A stretch of DNA of 64,000 nucleotides from Escherichia phage ph0011 (OP557969.1), one strand, 5' to 3'; shown: positions 21,754 to 37,057, counted from the first letter of the stretch. Translations and numbers: made by a program. The notes: generated from the sequence alone by a model not told the origin.

Positions 21754-22347
21754 ATGACAAAGATTGAATTAGATGAAGCGATTAAAGGTTTATCTAATGT
21801 GTGTTTTAGTGGCGGGGCAGCAGGTGCTGACCGCCTTTTTTCTATCTATGCAAAAGATAATGGATTTGAAGTTGTTAATTTTTCATTTAAAGGTCATGAG
21901 CATAGTGTAGATGAAAATACTATATTAGAAATACCATCCAATATTCTATCTGATATTTCTATATTAAAGCAACTAAACATTGCATGTTACTCGTTGCAGA
22001 GAAAAGTACCAAAGCCTGGTTCTTATGTTTATAACTTACTTGCAAGGAATAGTTATCAAATACTTAATACAGAAAGAATATATTGTATTGCAAATATTAC
22101 ATCACCAACTAAGGTGAGTGGTGGTACTGCATGGGCAGTGCAGATGTACATGGATTCAGTTGAAAATCCTGAAATTTATTGTTATGATATGAATTCACGT
22201 TCTGTATTTTATTTTGACACAGTACTGAAAGAGTTTACTGAAACATTCTCAATACCAGAACCACACGGTAACTGGACTGGGATTGGTTCACGTAATGCTA
22301 CACAAAAACACATGGAACATTTTATTACATTTTTCAAGGAAGTATAA
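21754..22347 (+). CDS. SLOG/Rossmann-like protein (DprA/LOG-like glycine motif)
   Basis: 197 aa; FSGGAAGADR and later SGGTAWAV glycine-rich motifs; stop overlaps td start (TAATG). Confidence 0.4.
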   Translation: MTKIELDEAIKGLSNVCFSGGAAGADRLFSIYAKDNGFEVVNFSFKGHEHSVDENTILEIPSNILSDISILKQLNIACYSLQRKVPKPGSYVYNLLARNSYQILNTERIYCIANITSPTKVSGGTAWAVQMYMDSVENPEIYCYDMNSRSVFYFDTVLKEFTETFSIPEPHGNWTGIGSRNATQKHMEHFITFFKEV

Positions 22348-23987
22348 TGAAACAACTACAAGAACTATATCAAAAAATTCTAGATGAAGGCGTGGAAAGT
22401 GTTGACCGTACTGGTGTTGGTACAACCAAACTTATCGGTCAACAAATGCGTTTCGACCTTAACGATGGTTTTCCAGCAGTGACGACAAAACGTCTAGCAT
22501 GGAAAACAATGGTTGCTGAACTTTTATTTTTTATTAAAGGTATTCCAGACCGTCGAGTGATGCAGGAATTTTTACATGGTGAATTTAATGAAGATAAGAA
22601 CGATATTTGGAAAGGTAATTGTGTTGATATGAAAAATAAAAATCCATTAAAATTTAATGGATACAATTTAGGTAATATGTACCCAGTTTACTGGAGACGA
22701 ATGTATAAACCTGTTCCTAAAACAGTTAAAGTTAAACGTAAAAAAGACTTTGATTTTGAATATATTGAAAAATATAAATCATTTTATGATGATGTAGAAA
22801 TTGAAAAACATCATAAATCGGGTCAAACATTCATTGATATTAGGGGAGATGAGTTAGAATATCTTGGATTCAATGGACAGTATGAAAATAAACGACATTA
22901 TTTGAAATATAAGAACACGGGAACTATAATCAAACTCAATACATCTGAAATTGATATTAAACATAATAAACTTAATAGTGGTGAAGATTATTATAAAAAA
23001 AATTCAGTCGGTGGATATTTGGGTGCACCACGTGAAGTTCTTTCAAATGATCCATTGAACTCAAAAGTACAGAGCCTATGGTATAATATGCTTTCTCGTG
23101 TAAACACCTCTCCCAACTATAATAATATTAGTGTTAGCCCAAGGTGGTATAATTATTATAACTTCCTAACTGACATTCGTACTATACCACTGTTTTTTGA
23201 ATGGTTGGATGATCCAACATATTATGAATTAGATAAAGATTATTTTGGTTCATCTGTTTATTCAAGAAATACATGTACATTTTTACCCAAACATATCAAT
23301 CAAAAATTAATAAGAAAACGCAATGACTGTGCATTGGAAGTTGATGGAATACTTTATTATTCATTTACATGTTTTTATAAATCAATTTATGGTGGGAAAA
23401 CACAACCAAAAGATCCATTTACTTTTTTAGAAAATAACGGTCATACTTATATTATTCACGAAGAGACAGATGAATATGTATACCGTCCACAATTGTTTAT
23501 TGATCAATTAGAAACTGTTATTGAAAATATTAAACATGTCACCTTGAATGAAAATCATCCGGCTGGACGTAGATTGATTATGGATTCTTGGAATCCATCA
23601 TGGGAGGACGATTCAGTTCTGGGAATATGTCACCCATTTGTTCAATTCTTTGTAGTGAATGGAAAGCTGTCATGTGAGTTTTATATGCGTTCATCTGACA
23701 CATTTCTTGGATTACCACTGAATATATCATCATATGCATTATTGACGCACATGATTGCACAAATTACAGGTCTAGAAGTAGGAGAGCTAATTTACACTGC
23801 TGGTGATTGTCACATTTATAAAAATCACATTGAACAAGTAAAAGAACAACTACAACGAAAACCACGTGCATTACCTGAATTATGGATTGATCCTACTATT
23901 ACTGATATTGAAGATTTCACAATGGATTCTTTTAAATTGATTAATTACGATCCAATGCCAACAATTAAAGCACCGATGGCTGTATAA
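22347..23987 (+). CDS. td: thymidylate synthase (T4 Td-like) with about 260-aa in-frame insertion
   Basis: N-terminus DRTGVGT...GFPAVTTKRLAWK and C-terminus with catalytic Cys (ICHPFVQFF), DTFLGLPLNISSYALLTHM and PTIKAPMAV are ThyA-like; residues ~121-379 have no ThyA counterpart. Confidence 0.8.
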   Translation: MKQLQELYQKILDEGVESVDRTGVGTTKLIGQQMRFDLNDGFPAVTTKRLAWKTMVAELLFFIKGIPDRRVMQEFLHGEFNEDKNDIWKGNCVDMKNKNPLKFNGYNLGNMYPVYWRRMYKPVPKTVKVKRKKDFDFEYIEKYKSFYDDVEIEKHHKSGQTFIDIRGDELEYLGFNGQYENKRHYLKYKNTGTIIKLNTSEIDIKHNKLNSGEDYYKKNSVGGYLGAPREVLSNDPLNSKVQSLWYNMLSRVNTSPNYNNISVSPRWYNYYNFLTDIRTIPLFFEWLDDPTYYELDKDYFGSSVYSRNTCTFLPKHINQKLIRKRNDCALEVDGILYYSFTCFYKSIYGGKTQPKDPFTFLENNGHTYIIHEETDEYVYRPQLFIDQLETVIENIKHVTLNENHPAGRRLIMDSWNPSWEDDSVLGICHPFVQFFVVNGKLSCEFYMRSSDTFLGLPLNISSYALLTHMIAQITGLEVGELIYTAGDCHIYKNHIEQVKEQLQRKPRALPELWIDPTITDIEDFTMDSFKLINYDPMPTIKAPMAV

Positions 23988-23994
23988 ACGAAAA

Positions 23995-24020
23995 GGGAGA
24001 ACATATGTTCTCCCTTTTTT
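23995..24020. terminator. bidirectional terminator between convergent genes
   Basis: Perfect palindrome GGGAGAACA-TA-TGTTCTCCC flanked by A-run and T-run; td stops at 23987, minus-strand fibre gene stops at 24022. Confidence 0.6.
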
Positions 24021-24021
24021 A

Positions 24022-26313
24022 TTATCTAATTGTTACCAATGTTCTTCCGTCGAAACGTACATCAGGAGTTGAAGGTATACTAAACACCACGTTAGTGCCG
24101 TTAAACGTCACGCTATCGACCTCAACACGAGTATATACACCAGGGCTAATCTGTTCCTGTATCTCTGCTGTAACGATGTTTGAGGCTGTTACTGTAAGGG
24201 TGTATGAATCACCACTTAATACCCATGATGAAATAGTAAATGCGTCTGTCCTAACTGAACCTGAACCAATAGGAACCCATTGCCCTTTTACCTTTTGCAT
24301 AGAGGTTCGTTCGGATGTAGAGTATGCAATCATACCATCGACACCCACTGAGTTATCAATGCTTGCTAGTACTGGCAACTGAATACCATATCTATTAAAA
24401 CGTGTACGGATAGTTCCATTATCATAGATACTTACATCAGCATAATTACCCATAGAAAGTTTCAAATCCGCTCCATCCAATGTCATTGAACTTTGATTTG
24501 TATTACTTTCTAGTGTGAGTACACCGTTAGCTAATAAATTGATATTTTTAAATTTATTACTATTTCCTTTAAAAGTTGTATTAGCATTAAAAGTACTTGC
24601 ACCGTTAACTACAATAGTATTTTCTGCTGTGTCGCCTAATATGGTATTACCATTCAAAGTGGTTTCACCATCTACTACAATATTGGATTCGAAAGTACTA
24701 TTACCATTTACTACAAGATTGGATTTAAAAGTTCCATCACCATCTACGTCTACAGTAGAATGGAAAGTACTCTTACCATTAACCACAATAGTATTTTCTG
24801 CGGTATCACCCAATATGGTATTACTATGAACAGTCAAATTACCACTGGTGGTAACATTACTAGCTAGTGTATCACCATTCAATGTACTTGTTCCATCTAC
24901 TACAATATTGGATTTGAAAGTACTTTTACCATTAACCACAATAGTATTTTCTGGGGTTTCACCCAATGTTGTATTACCATGAACATTCAAATTACCACTA
25001 GCAGTAATATTACTAGCTAATGTATCACCAACCAATGTACTAGTACCATCTACTACAATATTACCATGAAAAGCACTTTCACCATTTTTGAATTCAACTT
25101 GTTCTTTATTCATTGAACTAAATGAAATGATATTACTACTTGCACTTATTCCAACATTAGTATTAGTTGGATTATCGAATCTCAGAACTGGCGTTGACGC
25201 AGGTGATGATGTTGATTGATATAATGTCAATGTCGAATTGGTAATTCTAATACGTTCAGTTCCAGAAGTACTGAATCCAATAGCATCATCAGCAGGATGA
25301 AAAATACCAGTATTCGTGTCTGACCATTTTTCAGGGTCATTACCTGGGTTGCTTACTGGGTCGTATGGGCTATTGTTAAATGCAATTGCTGGTGCGGTAG
25401 CACTACCATAGGTCACACCAAATCTACCACCTCCTACTGTACCATCGTCGTACATGGAATCACCAGTCCTACGTAAGCATTCAATTACAACGTTGTCGAT
25501 TGATGTTTGAACGGTTCCTGCATTCGTTCTAAATGGACGATTATTTGCAATCATGATAGTATTATCATATAATACTGAAGCTGCTGAAATACTAGTTCTT
25601 GATTGACGAAGGCGAATGTTTTTATCTTCAGTGATAATGATCCAATCACCATCTGATAGTGCTGTTTGGTTCATTGGTACACCGGATGCAAACGGTTTAG
25701 TTAAATCTTCATCAGTTGCTAAGTTTACTAGCCCACTATGACCAGTACTGGGAATGGCGGTAGATACAATTCTCGCAAAAGCATATGTTACGAGTTTAGC
25801 ACCAGAAATATTTGGATTAGAATCAACATAATATAAAATTTCTACCCAATCACCCTGACCAGTTGGGTTAGTTGGAGTGAATGTCACTGTACTTGTTGTT
25901 GGTTTATTAGCTTCAAAGTGTGCTTGTGCTGCATCTATAATACCACGTACAACATAATAATCACCACTAAGTGATGCTGTAGGTGCAGGTAGTGGACTTT
26001 GTGCCAAAGGTGGGTCTATATCATCAGGGATTGGATTATACGTACCAACAAATTGTAAACCACTAGTTACTGAATCTGGTAACTGTGATGTAAGAAGTTT
26101 GCCGTTAGCATCTAAGTTTGCAAAACGTCTATATGCCATCGAGCCATCTTCAAAATCCAGAACACCCTCGAATGATTTCCATTCTTTATTGTATCTAATC
26201 ATCCCTGATCTTATTACGTCAGCGGTTTCTTTTGATGGTGCTTTTGGTAACTCTAAAAAAGATTTACTATCAATAATTACACCACCATCACCTCTAATTC
26301 GATTTATACTCAT
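24022..26313 (-). CDS. tail fibre / receptor-binding protein with beta-helix-like repeats
   Basis: 763 aa; GAGG RBS; C-terminal ~40-aa repeats (ENTIVVNGKSTF three times); S/T/N/G-rich. Confidence 0.7.
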   Translation of the reverse strand: MSINRIRGDGGVIIDSKSFLELPKAPSKETADVIRSGMIRYNKEWKSFEGVLDFEDGSMAYRRFANLDANGKLLTSQLPDSVTSGLQFVGTYNPIPDDIDPPLAQSPLPAPTASLSGDYYVVRGIIDAAQAHFEANKPTTSTVTFTPTNPTGQGDWVEILYYVDSNPNISGAKLVTYAFARIVSTAIPSTGHSGLVNLATDEDLTKPFASGVPMNQTALSDGDWIIITEDKNIRLRQSRTSISAASVLYDNTIMIANNRPFRTNAGTVQTSIDNVVIECLRRTGDSMYDDGTVGGGRFGVTYGSATAPAIAFNNSPYDPVSNPGNDPEKWSDTNTGIFHPADDAIGFSTSGTERIRITNSTLTLYQSTSSPASTPVLRFDNPTNTNVGISASSNIISFSSMNKEQVEFKNGESAFHGNIVVDGTSTLVGDTLASNITASGNLNVHGNTTLGETPENTIVVNGKSTFKSNIVVDGTSTLNGDTLASNVTTSGNLTVHSNTILGDTAENTIVVNGKSTFHSTVDVDGDGTFKSNLVVNGNSTFESNIVVDGETTLNGNTILGDTAENTIVVNGASTFNANTTFKGNSNKFKNINLLANGVLTLESNTNQSSMTLDGADLKLSMGNYADVSIYDNGTIRTRFNRYGIQLPVLASIDNSVGVDGMIAYSTSERTSMQKVKGQWVPIGSGSVRTDAFTISSWVLSGDSYTLTVTASNIVTAEIQEQISPGVYTRVEVDSVTFNGTNVVFSIPSTPDVRFDGRTLVTIR

Positions 26314-26361
26314 TTAAATATTTCCTCAGAATAGATTATATATGATGTATTTATTTTAGAT

Positions 26362-26392
26362 AAAAGAAAAGGCCAAGTATAGACCTGGCCTT
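26362..26392 (-). terminator. terminator-like hairpin (minus strand)
   Basis: GGCCAAG...CCTGGCC hairpin with T-run on the minus strand, downstream of gene 26400..27179. Confidence 0.4.
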
Positions 26393-26399
26393 TAAAAAA

Positions 26400-27179
26400 T
26401 TATTTATTACGTTCAGGTATCTGAATACCTTCATATACCCATTTAGCAGCTTGTTGTGCTTTATAAATTGCATCTGGGTCAGAATCATCAACTGCATCAA
26501 TCGCTGCACATTGCTCTTCACATTCAGAAAATAGTTTTTCTACCATTGCGGATACTTCAGTATATAGTTGTGTCATTTCTTCTGAGGTAAGTTTTACAAT
26601 AGCATCATCCAGTATGATAGTGACATTTTCAGCACCCGACACTACTTGTGTATAATAATTAAGTAGCATTTGACGACCTGCAAGATCGGTATTGTAGCGA
26701 TGACCTTTGAATTCATAACCTGAATTAACACGAAATGCTCTCTCAGATAATGTTCTTTCTTTTAAATCTGTTTTTACATCAGCAATGGGTACATCAACAA
26801 AATTATAAGTTTTAAGTACTGTTAATGCTTTATATTCATCAGTTGCATCTTCCAAAAATTCCACCACTGGTTGCTTTTCATCTTTCAAACGAACATATTC
26901 CAATTGTTGGCCTTTTGAATTCACATTACCGACATTTTTATATTCTAACCACCAAAAACCTTCTTCTTTTCTCACTACATCATTCGGCTCTACTGGTGAA
27001 CCATCAACACTGGAAATTCCGTACAGAGTTCTAATATCACTATAAAGATAACGATAAGTCTGAGTATCATCGGGAGTTGCACCTGGACGTTCTTTAAGAC
27101 CTTTAACACCAATTGGATTAGTAATAATATTACCCAATTCATAATTTTCTTTTGAATCACCTTTCACATATGTGAACAT
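26400..27179 (-). CDS. hypothetical protein (fibre-associated by position)
   Basis: 259 aa; GAGG RBS; lies between two fibre genes. Confidence 0.6.
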   Translation of the reverse strand: MFTYVKGDSKENYELGNIITNPIGVKGLKERPGATPDDTQTYRYLYSDIRTLYGISSVDGSPVEPNDVVRKEEGFWWLEYKNVGNVNSKGQQLEYVRLKDEKQPVVEFLEDATDEYKALTVLKTYNFVDVPIADVKTDLKERTLSERAFRVNSGYEFKGHRYNTDLAGRQMLLNYYTQVVSGAENVTIILDDAIVKLTSEEMTQLYTEVSAMVEKLFSECEEQCAAIDAVDDSDPDAIYKAQQAAKWVYEGIQIPERNK

Positions 27180-27241
27180 ATAACTACCTCATTTGTTATG
27201 ATGGTGTCACCAAGTATAGGTGACACCTTTTATTATAATTA

Positions 27242-30200
27242 TTAAGCGGTACGTTGAGCAATAAACATATCTGCTACTGAACTTACACCATCGTAAATTA
27301 CCTGATAGATAGTTACAGAGTTTGCAGTTTTATTTAGAGTCCCATCAACAACAGCATATGTACCATCAGTAGTAAAGTTTCTATTACCAGTTGCATCTTG
27401 TTTAACATAAATGTATACTGATGATGCTTTTCCACCACCGATTAGACCAGTGATTGGTGCTAGAGTAGTATCTTGATCAAGAGTGATGAAGTATACGTTG
27501 CTAGTACCGTCAGGGGTCCAAGTACCATTCGGTGCAATAACAGAGGAAGTTACTTTACTTGGAATAACATCATACTTTTTGGTAGTTACGGTTGTAGTGG
27601 CGAGTTCTGCGTTGGTTGTAGTTAACTTACCAGTAACAGTTACTTCTTTATCAAACACCGCATTTTCTTTGAAAGTTGGTGTTGAATTAACAGTTAGTGT
27701 GTCAGTATTAGTATTACCTAAAACCACACTACCACTTGCTGTCATCAAACCAGAAACAGTTAGTGTACCACCAATAGTTGCATTACCAGTTACTGATGCA
27801 CTAGCAAGTGTAGCTGCACCAGATGTAGTTATTGTTGTAACAGATGCTGCCTCTAGTGTGGTTGCACCAGTTGCGGTAAGTTTACCATCAACTACTAGAT
27901 CACCAGTTACGGATGCACCACCGGACATTGTTACTGCCCCACCGAATGAACCAGTTGTAATTACTTCAAGTGTGTTACCTTTTAGTAATTCAGTTGCTGT
28001 GATACTTGTACCAGCGGTAATGCTTGTACCCGCAGAAACAGTATTAGTTGCAGTTAAGGACTTCACAGCTACATCAGAGTTAGCTTGGTTAAGTTTAGCA
28101 TTTAGAGTACCTGTTACTGTGAAGTCACCGTTGTTAACAACATTACCATTGATAGTTAGATTGTTATTTTGTGAACCGACATCACCAATTGTTGCTGATT
28201 TAGAAATTAACTCAGCACCAGCGGTAATGTTGCCAGCAGCACTGATATTGTTTGCTGCAACAACTGCATAAGGTTCAATTGTTTGACCACTAACATCAAT
28301 ATCTGCGTTAATACCACCATCAACACGCAAAGAACCAGCAATATATGTATTAGGGAAAATCTGAACAGTTTCAGTGTGTTCACCGACCTGTGTACCAACA
28401 ATAACATTAGATCCAGTTTTCACTGCACCAGAAGTTGTTAGAGAACCTACTGTTGCTTTGCCAGTAACACCTAGTGTACCGCCAACAGTTGCATTATTAG
28501 TTACTGCCAATGCTGTTCCTTCACCATTCAGTGTAATTGATGGAGCAGTTGCTTTACCAGTTACATCTAGTGTACCACCAACAGTTGCATTACCATCTGA
28601 ATGTATTGTTGTTGCAACAGAAAGACTGTTTGCAATTACATCCGCACCAGTCAAATCCAATGCACCTGGTGTTAATGTACCAGTAATGTTAACATTATTA
28701 CCAAAGGTTGCTGCACCAGTTACATCTAGTGTAGTGCTAAATGTACCAGAAGTTGCAGAGATTGCACCAGATTCAAGTGAACCAACAGTGGTTTTTCCAG
28801 TTACACCCAGTGTACCACCAACTGTTCCATTTGTTGTAACTTCTAGTGTTCCAGTACTTAGATCTTTTGCTGTCACTTTACCAGATGCGTTAACAGTTGT
28901 TGTTGTAACACCACCACTTAGGGTGCTTGTCCCAGTAACACTGAGTGTTTTTGCTGCACTAACGCTGTTTACAGTAAGATCAGCACCTGATAGGTCTAAA
29001 CCACCTTCAGGAATAAAATTACCCTTAACTGTTAGTTGTTGAACAGTACTGTCACCAGTTACATCTAGTGTAGAAGCAGTCAAACCACCATTCATACTTG
29101 CTGCACCAGTAACATCTAGTGTAGTTGTTACAGTTGCACTGTTTAGTGTGGAGCTACCGGAAATATTAGCACTAGGTGCAGTAATAGATCCTTTTACAAC
29201 TTGTACATCACCCGCAACAACATCAATACCACCAGCATTAACTGTTAGTTTTTCAGCAGTATTCAACGTACTTGAAATTGTTGTTGCACCAGTTAAGGTT
29301 GTAGTTCCAGCTACACTTATGTTTCCAGAGATAGATGGATTACCTGTAATGTCACCAGTAGTGAGAACCAATTCAGTACCTACAGTAGTAGAACCAGTAC
29401 TTTCTAGTGTTACACCAACGATGTTTGCAGAACTTAGGTTAATAGTACCATCAACAGTTAAGTTACCGTGAACGGTCGCATCACCAAGTGAATTTAATGT
29501 TTTCACTGAAACATCAGTTTTACTAAGGTCAATTACACCCGCAGTAAGTGTTCCAGATACTGCCAAATTACCAGTTATTGCTGTATTTTTAGTAATAGAT
29601 ACTGTTTCTGATGCTGACGTAATGGAGCCAGCAGTAAGTGCCCCACCAATGGTTGCATTGTTAGTTACGGTTAACGCTGTTTCTTCACCAGATAGTGTTA
29701 AAGAAATACCATTCATTTCACCAGTAATATTTGCCGATGCCGCAGAAATATCACCAGCAACTACCGCATTTGTTGCGTTTAGGGTTGTTGTGGTAATTTC
29801 AGTACTTTTCACTTTAGGTAGTGCGTTGATACCATCTTTACTATTAACTGTAATAATACCAGAACTTGTTAGAGATTTAACAGAAACATCTGCACCACTT
29901 AAGTTAACTGTACCAGAAACAACTAGATCGCCACCAATATTAGCTCCTTCTGTTGTAGTGATTGATTTTGCATTAACTTCAGTGTTACTCAAATCAATTG
30001 CACCAGGTGATACAGTTCCAGAAACTGTGAGATTACCAGTAACTGTAGTATCATTAGAAATAGATACGCCATCATCATTGCTAATTGTTGGGGTTTCAAT
30101 TGTAACAGCTTTAACTTTACCAGAAGAAGTCATGTCAGCAACAGTAGATGCACCAGTGACCTTTAGATTAGTAATATTTGCAGTAGTTGAGCCAAGTGTA

Positions 30201-32746
30201 GTAATCGTACCATCAGTACTTTCTAGTTTAGGAAGAACACTAGCAATAGAAGATTCGTTACTAACAATTGCACCAGTACTAGTTAAAGATTTGACAGTAA
30301 CATCAGCCGTAGTAAGATCTACTGTACCATTAACAGTTAGGTTACCACCAATAGTTGCACCAGCAGTAGTAGTAATGGATTTAGCATTAACATCAGTTGT
30401 TGCTAGATCGATAGAACCTGGAATAACTGCACCAGTAACGGTTAGGTCACCAGTTACATTTGTATTATTGGAAATAGTGACACCACTTGCATTTGAAATG
30501 GTTGGGGTAACCAACGATGCAGTTGTAGTTTCACCAGTTACAGTTAAAGTTGACCCAACTAGAACAGATGAGCTTGAGTAAATTGTACCCAAATTAGCAG
30601 ATCCGGTAACAGTTATATCATCAGCATTAACAGTAGTTGTCGTTATGGTAGTACTATTAAGTACTGGAAGTACGTTAGCATTAACAAGATCATTACTTTT
30701 AACAATACCAGAAGTAGTTAATGATTTAACATTAAGGTTGGCTGCTGATAAATCAAAAGAGCCTTGAACTACTAAATCACCACCAATAGTTGCACCAGCA
30801 GTAGTAGTGATTGATTTAGCATTAATATCGGTAGTGCTCAAGTCTAGAGAACCAACAGTTAAGCTACCAGTAATATCAACATTTTCGGTGAAGTTAGTAT
30901 CACCACTAATAGTTGGTGCAGTAAGATTTGTTGCACTAATATTAGTACCGTTAATTGTTTGCCCACTTACAGTTCCACTCGCAGTGATAGTAGGAGCCGT
31001 TACTTCAGTAGATGCACTAATTGTTGGTGCAGATACAGAAGTTGTACCAGTAATAGTACCAGAACTTACTGAACCAGCGGATAATGCACCAGAAAGAGTT
31101 GCAGTTGTACCAGCAATATCACCAGTAACAGTTAGTTTAGCACCCACGGTAGTGTTACCAGTACTTTCAAGTGTTGCACCTTTAATATTTGCTGCCGCGA
31201 CAACAGAATTAGGTGTTAGATCTTGACCACTAACATCAACAGTTAGTCCAGTTACTGTTCCAGTAAATTCAACATCATTAAGAATTGCCTTACCACCAAC
31301 TGTAAGGTATGGTGTACTTGGGTCTTGAGTATCGTTACCAGTGATAGTTAGATAATCTAGTTTGTTTAGGCCGTTACCAGTAATACCATAAGAAGATAGT
31401 GATGCATTACCAAAGGTAGCAGTTTTAAGTACTTTCAATGTTGCTGGGGAAACCAACTCAGATTGAACTTCATTAGGTAAAATAACGGTTGGACGTTTAT
31501 CTTGTGCGGTATACGCAAAACCTAGTTTCACAGCAGAATCTTGTGAATTTTGACCTAAACTAATAGCTTTAAAAGAAGCAGTACCGTTTAAACCAGTAAT
31601 ATTAGATCCTAGTGTAACACCACCAACTAAAGAAGACGCACCCTTTATATTTAAAGTGTTTGCATCAATATCATCAAGTTGGAAATCACCACCAAATGTA
31701 CCGGAAACATTAATATTATTAAAATTAGCAGTACCAGTACTTTCAATATCTGGAATGGTTGCTGTTCCAGTAACCTCAAAATCAGCAACTTTAGTTTTAC
31801 CTTTTGTCACTTCTAGAAGTGGGGTGTCAGGTGATTGTGTATCGTTACCAGAAACGGTTAGATAATCTAGTTTGTTTAGACCATTACCAGTAATACCATA
31901 AGAAGACAATGATGCATTACCAAAAGTAGCAGAAGTTAAAACTGTCAATTTAGCAGGTGACATTAATTCAGATTGAATTTCATTTTGTAGAATTACTGTT
32001 GGACGTTTATCAGGAGCACTGTAAGGGAAGCTCAATCTGGAGGTTTGTGATTCAGAGTCGGTTCCGATACGGATATCTTTAAATGTAGCAGTGCTATTAA
32101 TACCAGTTACGTTAGCACCAAAAGTTACCGCACCTTTTTGATTAGATGCACCAGTAACATTCAATGTTTCAGCGTTTAAATCAGAAAGATTAAACTCGCC
32201 ACCTAGTGTACCACTAATATTCACATCTTGAAACTCAGCAGTGCCAGTACTAGTAATGTCAGTTGCGGTAATAGTTGTAATTTCTGCGGAATTGGAAGTA
32301 ATTTTATCAAAAGCAGCGGTTGTACCAACCTCAGCAGATAAGTCCCCTTTAAGTGTTGTTTCTCCCACAACTTCTAAGCTTTTTACTTTAGTTGATTGTA
32401 GTGTGGTTGAACCAGCAGTTTGTGAAAAATCACTACCCACCGACACAGTACCGTTAAACGTAGCACTTGAATTGATTGTTACTGTATCAGAACCACCATC
32501 TGCACTGCCGATTGTGGTATTTCCAGTAATATCAAGGCCACCACTTAATGTTGCTTTACCACCAACATCTAAAGTAGAGTTGATGATAGCTGTTTCAGTT
32601 TCAATAGCAGTAAATGTTGCGTTTGCAAAAGAGATACTACCATCTACTCTTAGGTTATTCTTGATTACTGCATTACCTTTGACTAATAGATCCTTACCAA
32701 CTGTTCCAGCACCAGTAATATCTAAGTCAGTTTTTATTGAGTACAT
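27242..32746 (-). CDS. long tail fibre protein
   Basis: 1834 aa; GGAGGG RBS; extreme T/S/G/N/V composition typical of beta-structured fibres; large internal tandem duplications. Confidence 0.75.
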   Translation of the reverse strand: MYSIKTDLDITGAGTVGKDLLVKGNAVIKNNLRVDGSISFANATFTAIETETAIINSTLDVGGKATLSGGLDITGNTTIGSADGGSDTVTINSSATFNGTVSVGSDFSQTAGSTTLQSTKVKSLEVVGETTLKGDLSAEVGTTAAFDKITSNSAEITTITATDITSTGTAEFQDVNISGTLGGEFNLSDLNAETLNVTGASNQKGAVTFGANVTGINSTATFKDIRIGTDSESQTSRLSFPYSAPDKRPTVILQNEIQSELMSPAKLTVLTSATFGNASLSSYGITGNGLNKLDYLTVSGNDTQSPDTPLLEVTKGKTKVADFEVTGTATIPDIESTGTANFNNINVSGTFGGDFQLDDIDANTLNIKGASSLVGGVTLGSNITGLNGTASFKAISLGQNSQDSAVKLGFAYTAQDKRPTVILPNEVQSELVSPATLKVLKTATFGNASLSSYGITGNGLNKLDYLTITGNDTQDPSTPYLTVGGKAILNDVEFTGTVTGLTVDVSGQDLTPNSVVAAANIKGATLESTGNTTVGAKLTVTGDIAGTTATLSGALSAGSVSSGTITGTTSVSAPTISASTEVTAPTITASGTVSGQTINGTNISATNLTAPTISGDTNFTENVDITGSLTVGSLDLSTTDINAKSITTTAGATIGGDLVVQGSFDLSAANLNVKSLTTSGIVKSNDLVNANVLPVLNSTTITTTTVNADDITVTGSANLGTIYSSSSVLVGSTLTVTGETTTASLVTPTISNASGVTISNNTNVTGDLTVTGAVIPGSIDLATTDVNAKSITTTAGATIGGNLTVNGTVDLTTADVTVKSLTSTGAIVSNESSIASVLPKLESTDGTITTLGSTTANITNLKVTGASTVADMTSSGKVKAVTIETPTISNDDGVSISNDTTVTGNLTVSGTVSPGAIDLSNTEVNAKSITTTEGANIGGDLVVSGTVNLSGADVSVKSLTSSGIITVNSKDGINALPKVKSTEITTTTLNATNAVVAGDISAASANITGEMNGISLTLSGEETALTVTNNATIGGALTAGSITSASETVSITKNTAITGNLAVSGTLTAGVIDLSKTDVSVKTLNSLGDATVHGNLTVDGTINLSSANIVGVTLESTGSTTVGTELVLTTGDITGNPSISGNISVAGTTTLTGATTISSTLNTAEKLTVNAGGIDVVAGDVQVVKGSITAPSANISGSSTLNSATVTTTLDVTGAASMNGGLTASTLDVTGDSTVQQLTVKGNFIPEGGLDLSGADLTVNSVSAAKTLSVTGTSTLSGGVTTTTVNASGKVTAKDLSTGTLEVTTNGTVGGTLGVTGKTTVGSLESGAISATSGTFSTTLDVTGAATFGNNVNITGTLTPGALDLTGADVIANSLSVATTIHSDGNATVGGTLDVTGKATAPSITLNGEGTALAVTNNATVGGTLGVTGKATVGSLTTSGAVKTGSNVIVGTQVGEHTETVQIFPNTYIAGSLRVDGGINADIDVSGQTIEPYAVVAANNISAAGNITAGAELISKSATIGDVGSQNNNLTINGNVVNNGDFTVTGTLNAKLNQANSDVAVKSLTATNTVSAGTSITAGTSITATELLKGNTLEVITTGSFGGAVTMSGGASVTGDLVVDGKLTATGATTLEAASVTTITTSGAATLASASVTGNATIGGTLTVSGLMTASGSVVLGNTNTDTLTVNSTPTFKENAVFDKEVTVTGKLTTTNAELATTTVTTKKYDVIPSKVTSSVIAPNGTWTPDGTSNVYFITLDQDTTLAPITGLIGGGKASSVYIYVKQDATGNRNFTTDGTYAVVDGTLNKTANSVTIYQVIYDGVSSVADMFIAQRTA
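29400..30900 (-). repeat. intragenic tandem repeat array, about 4 units of ~435 bp
   Basis: Protein units of ~145 aa each containing D(I/V)NAKSITTT.GA.IGG..V...V.L..A.V.VKSLT; matching DNA near 29930, 30370 and 30800; boundaries approximate. Confidence 0.5.
31250..32260 (-). repeat. intragenic tandem duplication, two units of ~510 bp
   Basis: Protein segments ~aa 162-330 and 331-500 highly similar (KRPTVIL.NE.QSEL.SPA.L.VL..ATFGNASLSSYGITGNGLNKLDYLT); DNA copies recognisable by eye; boundaries approximate. Confidence 0.55.
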
Positions 32747-32821
32747 TTATACCCTCCGTTGGAGCCTTGTTAATATGTATATATTTAGTTTAATTTAACT
32801 GATATCCAATATTTTATAAAA

Positions 32822-32853
32822 TAAAAAACCAGACTTATTTGAATAAGCCCGGT
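32822..32853 (-). terminator. terminator-like hairpin (minus strand)
   Basis: Imperfect hairpin followed by T-run on the minus strand, just downstream of stop at 32863. Confidence 0.35.
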
Positions 32854-32862
32854 TTAATTTTA

Positions 32863-33759
32863 TTACTTACCAGAGATAACAATCTTCCCACTGAATGCAA
32901 CATCAGAAGTAAAGATCACGTCACCAGTATTGCTAATTTGTGTATCAGTTATTACCAATTCAAATGGTGAGGATGCAACACTACCAGGTGTTTTATTTGC
33001 ATAAATCGAAACATACAAATTGTCTGGTGATTGTTTGTGTTCAGATGCTGAAATCGTGATGATGAACACATCGTTATTAGAAATCCAATCTGCTTGGTTT
33101 ACTAATTTACTATAAGGTACTGTCATTGTTGTTGCTCCTATAATGTTTACTTTAACATTTGCATAATCTGTAATTTTACCAATTACATCTATTGTGATAT
33201 CACCAGTGCCGCTTACTACTACAGAGGTTTGAAATACGGAATCCAATGTTATACTACCATGAGGATCACCCTGTAGTTGTACCATGATATCAGGACCACG
33301 CCCATGTACAGATGCTGGAAGGGTGTATGTGTAATGGTCGGTAGTATCTGAAACTAATGTAAATGAAGATACTGGTATAGTTTCAGTTGTTACATATGGA
33401 CTATCAGTTTCATGTGAACTACCTTTGAATGATTTCCAAATACCAAGATCTTTAATATAAATTTGAAGAACATTAGTTTCATCAACTAAAAAATACAAAT
33501 CACCATCTAACCCAATAGTTTCATCCGGTGCACTGGTTCCACGCAAAATACCAGAACTCCCACCACTATGTGCGTTTAGATATCCTAACGTAACCAGGTG
33601 TGTGTCAGCGGTCGGTTCACCTGCTGAAATTGGAAGAAGTTTTGTTCCTGAGTAGTTTTGTATTTGCACAACACTACCATTTGTGGTAATCTGTGCACCA
33701 TTCTTCCCAAGAATGAAGGACTTCTTCATGGTTCCTTCTAAATTAGAAAAAACTGCCAT
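32863..33759 (-). CDS. short tailspike/fibre protein with shared N-terminal anchor domain
   Basis: 298 aa; N-terminus MAVFSNLEGTMKKSFILGKNGAQI nearly identical to that of the upstream 713-aa tailspike; GGAG RBS. Confidence 0.65.
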   Translation of the reverse strand: MAVFSNLEGTMKKSFILGKNGAQITTNGSVVQIQNYSGTKLLPISAGEPTADTHLVTLGYLNAHSGGSSGILRGTSAPDETIGLDGDLYFLVDETNVLQIYIKDLGIWKSFKGSSHETDSPYVTTETIPVSSFTLVSDTTDHYTYTLPASVHGRGPDIMVQLQGDPHGSITLDSVFQTSVVVSGTGDITIDVIGKITDYANVKVNIIGATTMTVPYSKLVNQADWISNNDVFIITISASEHKQSPDNLYVSIYANKTPGSVASSPFELVITDTQISNTGDVIFTSDVAFSGKIVISGK

Positions 33760-33775
33760 TTTAATTTAATCTCCT

Positions 33776-35917
33776 TTATGGTAGGGTTATGTACGTTACT
33801 GGTTGGGCGGCTTTTAATGATGCACCAGCGGCAGTTGCTGTTATGATGGGATCTGCAATATCAATTCTATATACGTTATTAACAACATATACTGCACGAG
33901 TTATATACGTTTTCAAATCATCACCATTTTCTCCAGCACCAGATATGATGATCTCAGTTCCCGCCGCTTTTGCATATTGGTTATCACCCCATGACACACC
34001 CAATGCTTCTATGTACGTTTGTCCTACTACCGTTTGTCTAATTGTGTCATATTTTCCAAAAAATGAACCACCCACTGTTACAATATATTTTCCACCTGAT
34101 TTTTTATGTATAATCGTTCCTTCTGGGAAGTATCTTCCACCAGGGAAAGTATCATATGGAATATAATATTGTTCAACTACAGGTATTAGAACTGGGCCAC
34201 GATGACCAGTACCGTCAATAGCAGTTGTTACTTTAAAATTATTAGATGATTGGTCGATTCTATCTACGTACATTTTAGAAAAACTATATTTTGAAACATT
34301 ACAATCATCTTGAACAACACAGTTAGTCCAATTAGTATAAGTATATTTAGAGCGAGTATACATTCCCCCACCCTCACCTTCAGTGGAAAGGTGTTGTCCT
34401 ATTACATCTAATTCTTTTGTTCTGATATCACTAAACTTAGATGAAGATGGTAGACCACGCCAAAGAATTTTAGAACAAGTGATATTACTTAATTCTGTAC
34501 TATTCAGCCAATTATCAGAACCAGAAGTATAAACGAATACGGAAGACTCTGGTATATAGAGATTGGAAATTTTAAAGTTTCTAGGTGGTCCAGCAAATCG
34601 ACCAGCAGTTACCCCCCAGTTAATAGATACCATACGGTTTGTGATTGTAGGATCATTAAGTAAATGTCCGGTTAAACCATCAATTACAAACTCTTTTGAG
34701 CCATAAGTTATCACACCAGCAGTTGTTAATCCAGTACCAACTGAAATTAGAGATGATGGATACACTTCGTTATCAAGTATTTTAAAGTCCATTCCCAATT
34801 CAACATGGATACATTGTCTAACATTATAAATTCTATTGTTCTTAATAACAAAGTTTCTAACGTATTGGGTATCAGGTGCATCCAGACCATAAGGACCAGA
34901 ACCCGCAACACCAATACCGATACCCCAGTTTGAAAGTGGGATTGGTGCATCTGAACCATCAACGTTTTCAATGATATTACCTTCGATTACAAAACCATCA
35001 GGATAATGTGAGTTAATAACGTTTAATTCTATTGCATCACCATATATATCATGAATATGGTTGTAAGAATAACGCCCCACTTTCATTTTCTCACCAGTTC
35101 CTTGCTGAAGAACGCCATATTTACATTTGGTCATTTCATTAAAGCAAAAATCTATTGTTCCTGGTTGGGTCATACCTTGCATCAAAAACGCGGCAGTACT
35201 GGTAATGTTTACAAATTTATTAAAATAAAATTTACCATCCCCACCAAAGAATTTCAAATAACATCCAGTAAGTGTGGTGAATTGAATTTGTGAATTAATA
35301 ACGGATATCATAGTACCACCATTACCAGTAATAGTGCCACCAAACCAAGTTACATCTTCCAAATATACTGCTTTTTTGATACGATAATTACCACCTGCTT
35401 GAATTTGTATTTTATTTTCTTTGGCATAAGTTGCACACAAATTTACAGCTTCAGTGTCATCGGTTTCCCCATCTCCTTTCGCACCAAATTCTTCTGGTGT
35501 TATATAGAACTGTGCTTGTTGAACTGTGCCACCAGTAATAAGGCCAATGAAATCACCACCATTTTTACTTGATAGTACTTTTTTATTAATGTATAGTGAT
35601 TTAATCCATGTGCCATTTGTTTTTACGAAAATATCAACAATACCATCTTCATCAATTTGAAAATAAGTGTTATTGTTTTTTCCAATATCACCAGACGGTG
35701 GTTGAACGCCAAATAAGGCATTTGGATTATCTTCAAGGTATCTAACATTAACTGCTGAATCTTGGTCTGATGGTGTTCCTATCTTTAGTGGTAGAAACTT
35801 TTCACCGAGATAATCTTTTATCGATACGGAATCATTGACGAAATTTATCGAAGCACCATTTTTACCCAATATCATTTTTGGTTTCATGGTTCCTTCAAAA
35901 TTAGAAAATACTGCCAT
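33776..35917 (-). CDS. tailspike protein (beta-helix, depolymerase candidate) with shared N-terminal anchor domain
   Basis: 713 aa; N-terminus MAVFSNFEGTMKPKMILGKNGASI; central region with motifs like NNRIYNVRQCIHVE and repetitive G/N-rich turns suggestive of a right-handed beta-helix; GGGGG RBS. Confidence 0.65.
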   Translation of the reverse strand: MAVFSNFEGTMKPKMILGKNGASINFVNDSVSIKDYLGEKFLPLKIGTPSDQDSAVNVRYLEDNPNALFGVQPPSGDIGKNNNTYFQIDEDGIVDIFVKTNGTWIKSLYINKKVLSSKNGGDFIGLITGGTVQQAQFYITPEEFGAKGDGETDDTEAVNLCATYAKENKIQIQAGGNYRIKKAVYLEDVTWFGGTITGNGGTMISVINSQIQFTTLTGCYLKFFGGDGKFYFNKFVNITSTAAFLMQGMTQPGTIDFCFNEMTKCKYGVLQQGTGEKMKVGRYSYNHIHDIYGDAIELNVINSHYPDGFVIEGNIIENVDGSDAPIPLSNWGIGIGVAGSGPYGLDAPDTQYVRNFVIKNNRIYNVRQCIHVELGMDFKILDNEVYPSSLISVGTGLTTAGVITYGSKEFVIDGLTGHLLNDPTITNRMVSINWGVTAGRFAGPPRNFKISNLYIPESSVFVYTSGSDNWLNSTELSNITCSKILWRGLPSSSKFSDIRTKELDVIGQHLSTEGEGGGMYTRSKYTYTNWTNCVVQDDCNVSKYSFSKMYVDRIDQSSNNFKVTTAIDGTGHRGPVLIPVVEQYYIPYDTFPGGRYFPEGTIIHKKSGGKYIVTVGGSFFGKYDTIRQTVVGQTYIEALGVSWGDNQYAKAAGTEIIISGAGENGDDLKTYITRAVYVVNNVYRIDIADPIITATAAGASLKAAQPVTYITLP

Positions 35918-35929
35918 TGTGACACCCCC

Positions 35930-37057
35930 TTAAATATTATCTTGAATAGGTTGGACCGGAGCTTGCCACGAAAGAGTACAAATAATTTCCATTTTACCAT
36001 AAGGACTGTTATTAACTGAATCATTGAATACACATGAAATAATTTCATCTACATCTGAAACTTCATGATTTGTTTCATTGACGATAAAACGCATCTGGTT
36101 ATTAATATCAAAGTAGGTTGTTGGTGCAATTACGGTTCCACCAATATTCTCGTTTGCTTCACCACCAAATCGAACAAACATATCAGTTACTGGTTGTGAA
36201 TAAGGTTGTAAAACATTTACATCTATATTAGAAACTACATATCCAGAAGGACAAGTCCCAATAACTAATAGAGCATTAGTCCATGATCTATCAATAACGT
36301 TTCTAATTGTTACAGTATCTTTGCCTGGTGCACCCGGTTCACCTTGCTTACCTTGAATACCTTGTGGACCTTCTTTACCACGGAATAAAATACCACTACT
36401 CCATTCTTTTGATGGTGGGGTGGTAGTTGTTACTTCATCCACATAATAAAGCTTACCATCAGTGTTGTTATAGAAACAATAATCAATTGGGAGGTTTTCA
36501 ATACTTGGAAATTGATCACCACTATCGTCAATATGAAAACGACCACGTGGACCTTGCTCACCACGGAAAGGAATACCATCACTCCATGTAGCTGTTACTT
36601 TTTGATAAAAATATAGTTTACCATCTTGTGTATTGTAAAATGTATAGTTATCAAAAAGACCAGAACTTGGAAAAGTAGTTCCTGCACTATCGATATGAAA
36701 AGGCTTACCAGCTTCACCAGTATCACCTTTACCAAATTCAACACTAGTCCAAGTACTGGTTTCTTCTTGTGCATCATTTGATTTAAAATACAGAGTACTT
36801 GTGTTATTTGCCAAACTAAGATAGCACCAGCCAAGCGGTTCACCAACTTTAAATTTATCAGATGGAACTTCAAAACCAATCTCATTAGGATAAAAGTTTT
36901 TACCGTTCTGACCATTTTGTCCCACAACAAGACCGAGATCTTGAATTGTATTATCTGTATATGTTACAATTAAATGACCAGCATTATTAATAACTAGACT
37001 TTTGATGCCTGAGTTATTACATGAACCACTGGACCCATTGTTAAATGTAATTGTCAT
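35930..37057 (-). CDS. collagen-like repeat tail fibre protein
   Basis: 375 aa; G-x-y triplets (GPQGIQGKQGEPGAPGKD; RGEQGPRGR); AGGGAA RBS; heads the fibre operon. Confidence 0.7.
   Translation of the reverse strand: MTITFNNGSSGSCNNSGIKSLVINNAGHLIVTYTDNTIQDLGLVVGQNGQNGKNFYPNEIGFEVPSDKFKVGEPLGWCYLSLANNTSTLYFKSNDAQEETSTWTSVEFGKGDTGEAGKPFHIDSAGTTFPSSGLFDNYTFYNTQDGKLYFYQKVTATWSDGIPFRGEQGPRGRFHIDDSGDQFPSIENLPIDYCFYNNTDGKLYYVDEVTTTTPPSKEWSSGILFRGKEGPQGIQGKQGEPGAPGKDTVTIRNVIDRSWTNALLVIGTCPSGYVVSNIDVNVLQPYSQPVTDMFVRFGGEANENIGGTVIAPTTYFDINNQMRFIVNETNHEVSDVDEIISCVFNDSVNNSPYGKMEIICTLSWQAPVQPIQDNI

Follow-up and report, generated by a model that had tools for sequence, protein, structure and literature searches.

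A block of six genes on the minus strand, at positions 24022-37057 of the window (the whole stretch of 64,000 nucleotides of Escherichia phage ph0011, OP557969.1, that was analysed), is read here as a conserved module of tail-appendage genes from a jumbo coliphage of Asteriusvirus type, in the 121Q/PBECO4/phAPEC6 group; for this reading, taken together with the full account of the proteins given below, a probability of roughly 0.7 seems appropriate. Such a cluster is ordinary for the 121Q-like giant phages of E. coli. It comprises one putative depolymerase spike and two fibres, which are the candidates for host contact, one probable chaperone, and two conserved structural parts. Judged by their homologues, two or three of these proteins are likely receptor binders, not five, as the initial annotation had it.

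ORF calling found six long ORFs, which together cover the block:

24022-26313, minus strand, ATG start: 763-aa ORF, short fibre, orthologue of 121Q gp569, CBB_224 and RaK2 ORF060w
26400-27179, minus strand, ATG start: 259-aa ORF, DUF4376 protein, probably a chaperone or cap for the 1834-aa fibre, orthologue of 121Q gp570 and CBB_225
27242-32746, minus strand, ATG start: 1834-aa ORF, beta-helical repeat fibre, orthologue of 121Q gp571, phAPEC6 gp256 and CBB_226
32863-33759, minus strand, ATG start: 298-aa ORF, conserved virion protein, orthologue of 121Q gp572 and CBB_227
33776-35917, minus strand, ATG start: 713-aa ORF, putative colanic-acid-degrading (colanidase) tailspike, orthologue of 121Q gp573
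35930-37057, minus strand, ATG start: 375-aa ORF, conserved 'tail protein', orthologue of 121Q gp574, phAPEC6 gp253, CBB_228 and RaK2 ORF062w

The span, the strand and the four protein lengths given in the initial annotation are exact, and its assignment of the block to tail appendages agrees with the location inside the tail and baseplate region. All six ORFs have strong PHROG or Pfam matches, and at least 14 published genomes of jumbo coliphages encode full-length orthologues of all six in an identical order; they are therefore real genes and not chance ORFs. Plus-strand ORFs of up to 319 aa within the 1834-aa gene were rejected as genes, being antisense read-through of the repeats. The six proteins correspond one to one to their orthologues gp574-gp569 of Escherichia phage 121Q, with gene order and orientation unchanged. 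All six share 78-98% amino-acid identity over their full length with those of published Asteriusvirus genomes (121Q, UE-S1), the only change in length relative to these two phages lying in the repeats of the 763-aa protein. At the DNA level, the block is 85-88% identical to UE-S1, 121Q, slurp01, SP27, and others over 97-99% of its length. On one side it is bordered by the thymidylate synthase gene and on the other by three structural genes on the plus strand, an order that relatives share.

Four hairpins lie in or at the edge of the block:

32826-32855, minus strand: terminator-like hairpin 3′ of the 298-aa gene, a 13-bp stem followed by a T-run, closing the 375-713-298 unit
27203-27227, no strand assigned: perfect 9-bp hairpin between the fibre and chaperone genes
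26368-26393, minus strand: terminator-like hairpin 3′ of the 259-aa gene, from the hairpin search and the intergenic sequence
23990-24019, no strand assigned: bidirectional terminator hairpin common to the converging thymidylate synthase and 763-aa genes

The UE-S1 annotation places terminators at the same positions as the first, third, and fourth of these. Hairpin terminators would thus divide the block into three units, encoding the 375-, 713-, and 298-aa proteins, the 1834- and 259-aa proteins, and the 763-aa protein. As the hairpin at 27203-27227 lacks a T-run on the minus strand, which is the coding strand here, transcription could plausibly continue into the 259-aa gene.

The structural nature of the proteins is documented in relatives. 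CBB_224-228 of phage CBB are orthologues of five of the six (the colanidase is lacking) at 27-56% identity, and all five have been detected by mass spectrometry in CBB virions; in phAPEC6 virions, gp253 and gp256 have been detected in the same way. Virion proteomics was the approach by which the initial annotation proposed to refute itself, should most of the proteins turn out to be non-structural; that refutation fails because all five conserved CBB orthologues are virion components. Electron microscopy of relatives has revealed six short baseplate fibres together with hair-like fibres on the sheath and capsid, without branches of the RaK2 type.

The largest protein, of 1834 aa, matches the tail fibre family phrog_4549 (E 9e-216) and is built of repeat units of about 170 aa (two copies), 145 aa (three to four copies), and 113 aa (two copies). 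Its windings also give a Pfam Bactofilin-type match of 37.6 bits; an identification as a bactofilin (PF04519) was rejected, since the protein is not the single cytoskeletal-polymer domain that defines one. Homologues occur in Rak2-like phages of Escherichia, Salmonella, Erwinia, Cronobacter, Pectobacterium, Yersinia, Serratia, and Xanthomonas, and none was found at the matching locus of RaK2, the statement being confined to that locus. Relative to CBB, the best-conserved part is the N-terminal 100 aa (55%). At the other end lies a candidate receptor-binding region:

27245-27619, minus strand: C-terminal tip of the 1834-aa fibre, approximately residues 1710-1834, defined by homology to phiTE

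This tip has homologues in the C-terminal part of PDB 9CUY chain g, the 'putative tail fiber protein' of the phiTE baseplate, and in tail fibre proteins encoded by CR3, CR8, and POP17, phages with genomes of about 150 kb. The long fibre of phiTE has been described as a trimeric extended beta-helix, with a predicted total length of 512 Å, and the beta-helix-type sequence of 9CUY chain g suggests that this chain is that fibre. By analogy, the 1834-aa protein would be a trimeric beta-helical fibre. Scaling from the phiTE long fibre, which is crude and takes the 793-aa chain g to be that fibre, gives about 100 nm for CBB_226 and about 100-118 nm for the 1834-aa protein.

The 259-aa gene (start 27179) lies directly downstream of the 1834-aa gene (end 27242) on the same strand, a pairing that also exists in CBB. 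A C-terminal Pfam DUF4376 domain was detected at residues 135-237 (34.8 bits; cut-off 25). The protein diverges fast, in parallel with the fibre, retaining 58-87% identity among coliphages and 27% in other genera. Characterised DUF4376 chaperones, V22 gp27 and A5 gp9, have a role in fibre maturation, and a 'transient cap' function has been proposed for them. By analogy, the 259-aa protein probably serves the 1834-aa fibre as a chaperone or cap, most likely aiding the folding of the fibre tip and perhaps remaining on it afterwards. Since its orthologue CBB_225 is abundant in virions (68.5% coverage by mass spectrometry), it may be a stable component of the particle. The initial annotation had not counted this protein among the receptor binders.

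In the 763-aa protein, a conserved domain at the N-terminus is followed by a beta-helical rod built from 51-aa repeats, and a beta-sandwich forms the C-terminus. Part of the rod is visible as a direct duplication:

24763-25062, minus strand: tandem 153-bp (51-aa) repeat in the 763-aa rod (TRF: 2.0 copies, 89% match)

The number of 51-aa repeats varies between phages, the protein having 654 aa in 121Q (gp569), 756 aa in UE-S1, and 763 aa here. The most divergent part is residues 400-600, and the last 100 aa are 95% identical to 121Q. Within the genus the C-terminal tips vary little, so that none of them is marked by hypervariability as the host-range determinant. The 763-aa protein would be the shorter of the two fibres, attached to the virion through its conserved N-terminal domain, with a rod whose length varies with the repeats and a beta-sandwich at the tip. 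The monomer AF2 models made in the analysis reach medium confidence (pTM 0.37-0.38), and a trimeric fibre modelled as a single chain may come out misfolded. Repeats are present in both this protein and the 1834-aa protein, and their earlier description as repeat fibres is supported.

A different placement of the two fibres is possible, though we consider it doubtful. The 1834-aa fibre with its DUF4376 partner might form the 'hairy' whiskers of about 120 nm on the tail sheath, and perhaps on the capsid, that would give loose, reversible attachment or entanglement, rather than a receptor-binding fibre of the baseplate; the six short baseplate fibres would then be the 763-aa protein. The proteins of the whiskers are explicitly left unidentified in the CBB and phAPEC6 papers; hairs or long fibres have been reported for CBB, phAPEC6, fEgEco12, and 121Q, all of which carry the giant fibre gene, and the matching RaK2 locus has a homologue of neither the giant fibre nor the DUF4376 protein. 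The dimensions also fit, as CBB hairs measure 119 nm against the scaled values of about 100 nm for CBB_226 and about 118 nm for the 1834-aa fibre, and the CBB baseplate fibres of 28.6 nm suit the rod of a protein of about 640 aa. However, the length scaling is crude and depends on chain g being the long fibre, no hairs have been reported for GAP32, which carries the giant fibre gene, and the homologous fibre solved in phiTE is attached to the baseplate.

Under the preferred reading of a conserved tail-appendage module, two of the remaining proteins are structural parts of fixed design. The 375-aa protein matches phrog_13565 (E 8e-217) and contains four collagen-like G-X-Y runs at residues 46-54, 111-119, 166-174, and 227-247 (3, 3, 3, and 7 triplets, seven being the longest), separated by modules of about 50 aa and followed by a 128-aa C-terminal domain. 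The glycines of these runs are invariant among 27 homologues; the Pfam Collagen match (PF01391), however, stays below the gathering threshold (17.2 bits against 27.2). The 'collagen-like fibre' of the initial annotation is thus justified as far as the segments go: the protein uses collagen-like segments without belonging to the collagen-repeat proteins. Its distant homologue P0387 has a genuine, long collagen region. Homologues from different host genera keep a length of 356-387 aa at 44-95% identity, with 68.5% to Klebsiella phage RaK2 and 56% to CBB; the fixed length and the identity to RaK2 fit a core structural part and not a host-range determinant. No relative was found in the PDB. The phAPEC6 orthologue gp253 (65.6% coverage) and CBB_228 (13 peptides) were detected in virions by mass spectrometry, and the RaK2 orthologue gp062 was not detected in RaK2 virions. 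The 375-aa protein would accordingly be a conserved structural part in which the short collagen-like runs serve trimerisation.

The 298-aa protein is composed of an N-terminal module and two small beta-sandwich domains. The module is paralogous to the N-terminus of the 713-aa spike (41% identity, E 5e-21), and for the spike the HMM of module A (residues 1-66) scores E 9e-34:

33436-33759, minus strand: putative docking module of the 298-aa protein, residues 1-108, paralogous to the 713-aa N-terminus
35594-35917, minus strand: putative module for docking the spike on the virion, residues 1-108, paralogue of the 298-aa N-terminus

In RaK2, the module is a stand-alone gene of 115 aa. In metagenomic phages, its first 60-85 residues or so head a second colanidase, a Beta_helix protein, a Peptidase_S74 fibre, and BNR/sialidase-like proteins of 1204-1366 aa. 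Being paralogous to the N-terminus of a virion protein family, residues 1-108 of the spike form a separate, probably particle-binding domain. The 298-aa protein, bearing the same module, would be the conserved default occupant. It was rejected as a classical tailspike, having no central parallel beta-helix body and a fixed length across genera; of the two tailspikes announced earlier, the 713-aa protein stands and the 298-aa protein does not. With the 375-aa protein fitting a core structural part and the 298-aa protein being no tailspike, the count of five receptor-binding proteins could not be upheld.

The 713-aa protein is the one member of the set predicted to be an enzyme. Residues 101-712 align with residues 16-623 of the crystallised chain (626 residues) of PDB 6E0V (Phi92 gp150) at E 4e-237:

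33782-35617, minus strand: predicted catalytic beta-helix body, residues 101-712, from the 6E0V alignment

Further, the protein matches phrog_6117 'colanic acid degradation' (E 4e-260), its residues 96-712 are 57% identical to 'colanidase tailspike' genes of the phi92 group, and it is about 31% identical to podophage colanidases. A weak Pfam pectate-lyase-like match covers residues 143-246, and a protein of equal length from a close relative is assigned to the Pfam WcaM family in precomputed data. The depolymerase suspected in the initial annotation is thereby borne out by homology, and identification as a beta-helix polysaccharide depolymerase, namely a colanidase tailspike, is supported. Phi92 gp150 is called a colanidase tailspike and has been assigned to the downward-facing spikes of the Phi92 virion, and a phage colanidase has been described that opens mucoid E. 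coli to infection (PMC4179555). By analogy, the spike would be docked on the virion by its N-terminal module of about 108 residues, and its beta-helix body would cut the colanic acid capsule, so that the particle reaches the outer membrane. No colanidase was found in CBB, nor in RaK2 at the matching locus.

The initial annotation took the multiplicity of these genes as a sign of a branched assembly; that five receptor-binding proteins form a branched multi-receptor complex like those of RaK2, phiK64-1, CBA120, and Phi92, conferring a broad host range, appears unlikely. In its favour, the docking module is common to two proteins and heads a variety of enzymatic bodies in other phages, an uncultured relative carries it on two proteins inside a tandem array of five large genes, the gene content of the locus varies (two giant fibres in fEgEco12, an extra 578-aa gene in ELP-22), and UE-S1 lysed 31% of tested strains. 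Against this, just one protein of the six has a depolymerase domain or an enzymatic beta-helix; the lengths of the 298-aa and 375-aa proteins stay fixed across host genera; and micrographs of phAPEC6, CBB, fEgEco12, and 121Q display short baseplate fibres and hair-like fibres without branched trees. In RaK2, the branched-fibre genes (gp526-534) form a separate cluster elsewhere in the genome, away from the structural module, and the syntenic locus consists of three small genes. A homologue of RaK2 gp098 is absent here: searches with the six protein sequences returned no match to gp098, nor to CBA120 tailspikes among solved structures.

It is least likely of all that the 713-aa protein acts as a soluble auxiliary colanidase freed at lysis and not as a virion-bound spike: its PHROG category is 'moron, auxiliary metabolic gene', the 121Q note for gp573 is functional and does not read 'structural protein', and the orthologue is missing from the virion proteome table of phAPEC6, but its N-terminal module is that of a virion protein family detected by mass spectrometry, its gene is closely packed in an operon, with gaps of 12 and 16 nt to the virion protein genes on either side, its nearest solved relative is a tailspike assigned to Phi92 virion density, and the absence from the phAPEC6 list may be a technical gap because the gene is unannotated in GenBank (gp254, 255, 257, and 258 are without CDS annotation in that record although their ORFs are intact) and so may never have been searchable.

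The conserved tail-appendage module has close equivalents in the genus Asteriusvirus, namely 121Q gp569-gp574, UE-S1 UES1_518-523, and phAPEC6 gp253-gp258, and also in PBECO4, slurp01, SP27, G17, and others. The DNA diverges by about 12-14% from every published genome, and the flanking regions diverge equally. Unlike 121Q gp569, the 763-aa fibre is lengthened by extra 51-aa repeats; neither the extra gene of ELP-22 nor a second giant fibre gene, as in fEgEco12, is present here.

Individual proteins have counterparts in less related phages. The 1834-aa protein resembles the phiTE (9CUY chain g), CR3, CR8, and POP17 fibres in its beta-helix-type repeats and homologous C-terminal tip of about 110-180 residues, but it exceeds the 793 aa of phiTE chain g, and the N-terminal attachment regions are unrelated. 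As with gp26/gp27 of Alteromonas phage V22 and gp8/gp9 of A5, a protein with C-terminal DUF4376 is encoded right after the fibre gene; the fibre here, in contrast, exceeds those of V22 and A5 fivefold in length and has no sequence relationship to them. The whole beta-helix body of the 713-aa protein is homologous to Phi92 gp150 and the Justusliebigvirus spikes, whereas its N-terminal 100 or so residues are unrelated to gp150 and represent the docking module of Rak2-like jumbo phages. The general principle of a conserved N-terminal module bearing interchangeable enzymatic bodies is shared with RaK2 gp526-534 and gp098, CBA120 TSP1-4, and phiKp24, but in contrast to those complexes there is a single enzymatic spike here, and relatives are unbranched in micrographs; a T4 gp10-like (XD) or TSP D1-like fold was not clearly seen in the six proteins. 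Finally, Pectobacterium phage CBB (Mimasvirus) has the same locus with five of the six orthologues, the colanidase missing, and Klebsiella phage RaK2 (Alcyoneusvirus) has at this locus only three small genes, encoding a shortened orthologue of the 763-aa protein, the 115-aa docking module, and the orthologue of the 375-aa protein, and lacks genes there for a colanidase, a giant fibre, and a DUF4376 protein. The Asteriusvirus block thus amounts to a conserved core in enlarged form.

The six minus-strand genes at positions 24022-37057 belong to a tail-appendage module, and their coordinates and product lengths in the initial annotation are exact. All six ORFs begin with ATG and have strong PHROG matches. 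They are listed below in transcription order, with amino acid identities to the orthologues of the Asteriusvirus relatives UE-S1 and 121Q, respectively.

35930-37057, minus strand: first gene, 375-aa protein with collagen-like runs (95% and 90%)
33776-35917, minus strand: second gene, 713-aa predicted depolymerase spike (98% and 94%)
32863-33759, minus strand: third gene, 298-aa conserved structural protein (89% and 85%)
27242-32746, minus strand: fourth gene, 1834-aa giant repeat fibre (88% and 87%)
26400-27179, minus strand: fifth gene, 259-aa DUF4376 protein (87% and 80%)
24022-26313, minus strand: sixth gene, 763-aa repeat fibre (85% in UE-S1; in 121Q, 87% for the N-terminal part or 78% for the C-terminal part)

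The 1834-aa gene also contains long ORFs on the plus strand; these arise by antisense reading of its repeats, which are rich in Thr, Gly, and Val, and are not genes.

Over 93-99% of its length, the 13-kb block aligns with DNA that is 85-88% identical in UE-S1, slurp01, SP27, 121Q, phAPEC6, G17, PBECO4, and others; the matching phages are “Rak2-like” jumbo myophages of the genus Asteriusvirus. The block is orthologous to gp574 to gp569 of 121Q, which are flanked by thymidylate synthase on one side and by three plus-strand structural genes on the other, followed by a NUDIX gene and then by a T4 gp15-like sheath completion gene. The window also encodes the tail sheath and tube, a virion protein of 3333 aa, and baseplate wedge proteins, and the initial interpretation is partly supported: the block is a tail-appendage module. 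The 3333-aa ORF (45164-55165, minus strand) adjoins the baseplate wedge gene and is an orthologue of the giant virion proteins phAPEC6 gp245 (382 kDa) and CBB_236 of the Pectobacterium phage CBB, both found by mass spectrometry. The block shows no hypervariability: its divergence from 121Q or UE-S1 is no greater than that of the flanks, and the C-terminal tips are conserved within the genus. The neighboring thymidylate synthase ORF (22347-23987, plus strand) encodes 546 aa as compared with 309 aa in 121Q, CBB, and the Klebsiella phage RaK2. An in-frame insert of ~265 aa (DNA ~22620-23637) with matches to HNH endonuclease PHROGs interrupts its synthase domain; an Rfam search gave no group I intron, intein junctions are not obvious, and UE-S1 has a different insert in the same gene (517 aa).

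Virion proteomics had been named as the test by which the structural nature of these proteins could be overturned, and the cluster survives it, since all five conserved orthologues have been found in CBB virions. Instead of the five receptor-binding proteins first proposed, the block would encode two or three that plausibly contact the host (713, 1834, and 763 aa), along with a probable chaperone and a pair of conserved structural proteins.

The 713-aa protein is a depolymerase spike, with an activity predicted from homology. Nearly the entire crystallized chain of Phi92 gp150 (PDB 6E0V), termed a colanidase tailspike in the literature, aligns with spike residues 101-712 (E 4e-237), which upholds the initial assignment. 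PHROG 6117, “colanic acid degradation”, matches the protein with E 4e-260, residues 96-712 are 57% identical to products of genes annotated as “colanidase tailspike” in the phi92 group, and identity to podophage colanidases is ~31%. The precomputed Pfam family WcaM is recorded on the protein of identical length from a close relative. In the Phi92 reconstruction, the downward-facing spikes have been assigned to gp150, and a phage colanidase has been described that strips the E. coli mucoid layer (PMC4179555). A colanidase orthologue is absent from the phAPEC6 virion proteome table; in the GenBank record of this phage, four relevant block genes lack annotation, and their ORFs are intact.

The N-terminal ~108 residues of the spike recur in the 298-aa protein (41% identity, E 5e-21), and the sole match of the spike in CBB is to the N-terminal part of CBB_227, which is orthologous to the 298-aa protein. 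RaK2 ORF061w is this docking module alone (a 115-aa gene, 60% identical), and an exhaustive profile search with it found 353 proteins. The first ~60-85 residues of the module also stand at the start of proteins whose bodies differ widely, among them a second colanidase of 723 aa, a Beta_helix protein of 705 aa, a 780-aa fibre that bears a Peptidase_S74 intramolecular chaperone, and BNR/sialidase-like proteins (1204-1366 aa). The region 1-10118 of an uncultured relative (Logan SRR18476386_53, 119,912 bp) bears five large plus-strand genes in tandem (780, 902, 199, 919, and 705 aa), two of which begin with the ~66-residue module followed by a Peptidase_S74 fibre or a Beta_helix body; Pfam Phage_tail_beta (PF27114) is recorded on both. 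In heading proteins that differ so much in their bodies, the module behaves like a movable adaptor for virion docking; as a cassette of ~66 residues, it might let Rak2-like jumbo phages swap depolymerase bodies at one site. It could serve as a handle for retargeting jumbo phages by means of new depolymerase bodies.

The second half of the module (profile positions ~66-110, alignment A3; window positions 33436-33561 and 35594-35719) is a ~45-residue unit present in 4-15 copies per protein in hundreds of large metagenomic proteins (500-4000 aa), a distribution suggestive of a widespread fibre repeat. A ~45-aa “G-x-DG-x-Y...W” motif that by eye seemed common to this unit, three repeats of the 375-aa protein, and the 763-aa tip was rejected; an HMM of the unit gave no significant match to the 375-aa and 763-aa proteins (E 0.1 and 0.44).

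The 298-aa protein had been taken for a second tailspike. Its AF2 model (monomer, medium confidence, pLDDT 77) has instead the docking module followed by two small beta-sandwiches. The family comprises 68 homologue clusters, 66 of which align over the full length (284-309 aa, 40-94% identity), and the full-length homologues come from phages of Escherichia, Salmonella, Cronobacter, Erwinia, and Yersinia. CBB_227 has been identified as a virion protein by mass spectrometry. Searches of the PDB with the single sequence and with the family profile returned nothing significant. The protein is a conserved structural protein and not a tailspike.

The 375-aa protein carries four G-X-Y runs of 3, 3, 3, and 7 triplets, whose glycines are invariant in 27 homologues, and one distant homologue has a long true collagen region in place of the protein middle; in the protein itself, Pfam Collagen scores below threshold. 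Single-sequence and family-profile searches revealed no PDB relatives. The family length is fixed (356-387 aa), with identities of 68.5% in RaK2 and 56% in CBB, a pattern more in keeping with a core part of the structure than with a protein that determines host range. Mass spectrometry has shown abundant orthologues in virions of phAPEC6 (gp253, 65.6% coverage) and CBB (CBB_228, 13 peptides); RaK2 gp062 was undetected in RaK2 virions.

Both proteins initially described as repeat fibres, of 1834 and 763 aa, do contain internal repeats. The rod of the 763-aa protein is built of 51-aa repeats, encoded by a 153-bp tandem repeat, and their number varies by phage, the protein measuring 654 aa in 121Q, 756 aa in UE-S1, and 763 aa here. 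RaK2 ORF060w (510 aa) keeps the N- and C-terminal parts and is missing the repeats. All 112 family members are found in Rak2-like jumbo phages or unnamed contigs, and for most of them the best alignment is limited to the N-terminal ~60% of the query. The AF2 model (monomer, medium confidence, pLDDT 75) comprises an N-domain, a beta-solenoid, and a C-terminal beta-sandwich, with values of 84-94 at the C-terminus. The orthologue CBB_224 has yielded 22 peptides in virion mass spectrometry. PDB searches by single sequence and by family profile gave nothing significant. The 763-aa fibre was also considered as a counterpart of RaK2 gp098, an experimentally supported secondary receptor binder, and this was rejected, the two having no homology and lying at different loci.

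The 1834-aa giant fibre matches a tail-fibre PHROG with E 9e-216 and shows bactofilin-type beta-helical windings, and a chunked search resolved its internal repeats into three families. Orthologues are present in phAPEC6 and CBB virions. Residues 1-100 are the part most conserved in comparison with CBB (55%), as would be expected for a virion-attachment end. At the opposite end, the final ~110-180 residues share homology with the C-terminal part of a phiTE baseplate fibre (chain g of PDB 9CUY) as well as with CR3, CR8, and POP17 fibre proteins. This tip domain (C-terminal ~110 aa, positions 27245-27580) is common to the ~150-kb phages phiTE, CR3, CR8, POP17, and Salmonella SSBI34. Both phiTE and CR3 are flagellotropic; from this kinship, the tip might bind a filamentous or surface structure in a first, loose capture step.

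Directly downstream of the fibre gene lies the gene for the 259-aa protein, in which DUF4376 scores above the Pfam cut-off. The DUF4376 proteins V22 gp27 and A5 gp9 are tail-fibre chaperones encoded after fibre genes and have been proposed to act as transient caps. The 259-aa family diverges fast (58-87% identity among coliphages, 27% in other genera), and the divergence of the giant fibre keeps step with it. With 68.5% coverage, its orthologue CBB_225 is abundant in virions, as would suit a cap that remains on the fibre. A single-sequence PDB search with the 259-aa protein gave nothing significant.

As for the place of these fibres on the virion, the branched assembly first proposed finds no counterpart in micrographs of relatives, which show six short baseplate fibres and hairs on the sheath and capsid, not branched trees. 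The suggested comparison with a branched-fibre jumbo phage also fails, as the branches of RaK2 come from a separate cluster (gp526-534) and gp098, and no gp098 homologue exists here. Another reading is that the giant fibre with its DUF4376 partner forms the ~120-nm sheath and capsid hairs (whiskers) of Asteriusvirus and Mimasvirus. The phages reported to bear hairs all carry the giant fibre-DUF4376 pair, and RaK2 has neither gene at this locus. The phiTE long fibre has been described as an extended, trimeric beta-helix, its total length being predicted at 512 Å, and scaling from it gives ~100-118 nm for the giant fibre; CBB hairs measure 119 nm, and CBB baseplate fibres 28.6 nm. Such an identity of the whiskers is suggestive only and, on balance, rather unlikely. 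The full reading, which joins whisker identity, the capture role of the tip, and the portable docking cassette, is given a probability of about 0.2.

The first three block genes are separated by gaps of 12 and 16 nt, and each has a ribosome-binding site. Terminator-like hairpins directly follow the 298-aa, 259-aa, and 763-aa genes, with terminators annotated at matching positions in UE-S1, and a hairpin without a T-run lies between the giant fibre and putative chaperone genes. Scans for late promoters, upstream motifs, and sigma-70-like sites identified no block promoters: the only occurrence of the T4-type late promoter TATAAATA in the window is not upstream of the block, a candidate common upstream motif lacked significance and was not repeated ahead of the fibre gene, and sigma-70-like sites were fewer than in shuffled sequence. 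The whole window strongly avoids TATAAATA, with 1 occurrence observed against 10.5 expected from shuffles, every one of which had at least 1, even though the relatives CBB and RaK2 each have a gene for a late sigma factor of the gp55 kind.

A 763-aa protein 100% identical to that of the window (WJW27_003730) is annotated as E. coli in assembly GCA_037431425.1, on the 70.5-kb contig ABQUSV010000025.1. This contig carries the same six-gene block with two genes of different length (300 and 1847 aa), so it represents a close relative and not the window sequence. Jumbo-phage contigs of this type are evidently present within E. coli genome assemblies.

The analysis yields, as its useful results, a revised annotation of each gene, the portable docking module, and the pairing of the fibre with DUF4376; the colanidase spike, the fibre-DUF4376 pair, and the shared N-terminal module are cheap bench targets. 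Sequenced and annotated versions of the block already exist for more than 30 jumbo coliphages, so the present one is a further member of a known gene cluster. Across the clade, the locus holds five of the six genes in CBB, where the colanidase is absent, and three small genes only in RaK2; in fEgEco12, there are two genes for giant fibres (1906 and 1644 aa), and in ELP-22, an additional gene of 578 aa, annotated “tail needle knob”, lies between the 654-aa and DUF4376 genes. The locus thus has a conserved core, around which genes for appendages come and go, and the colanidase is an Asteriusvirus addition, composed of a duplicated docking module and a body common to phi92-type phages.
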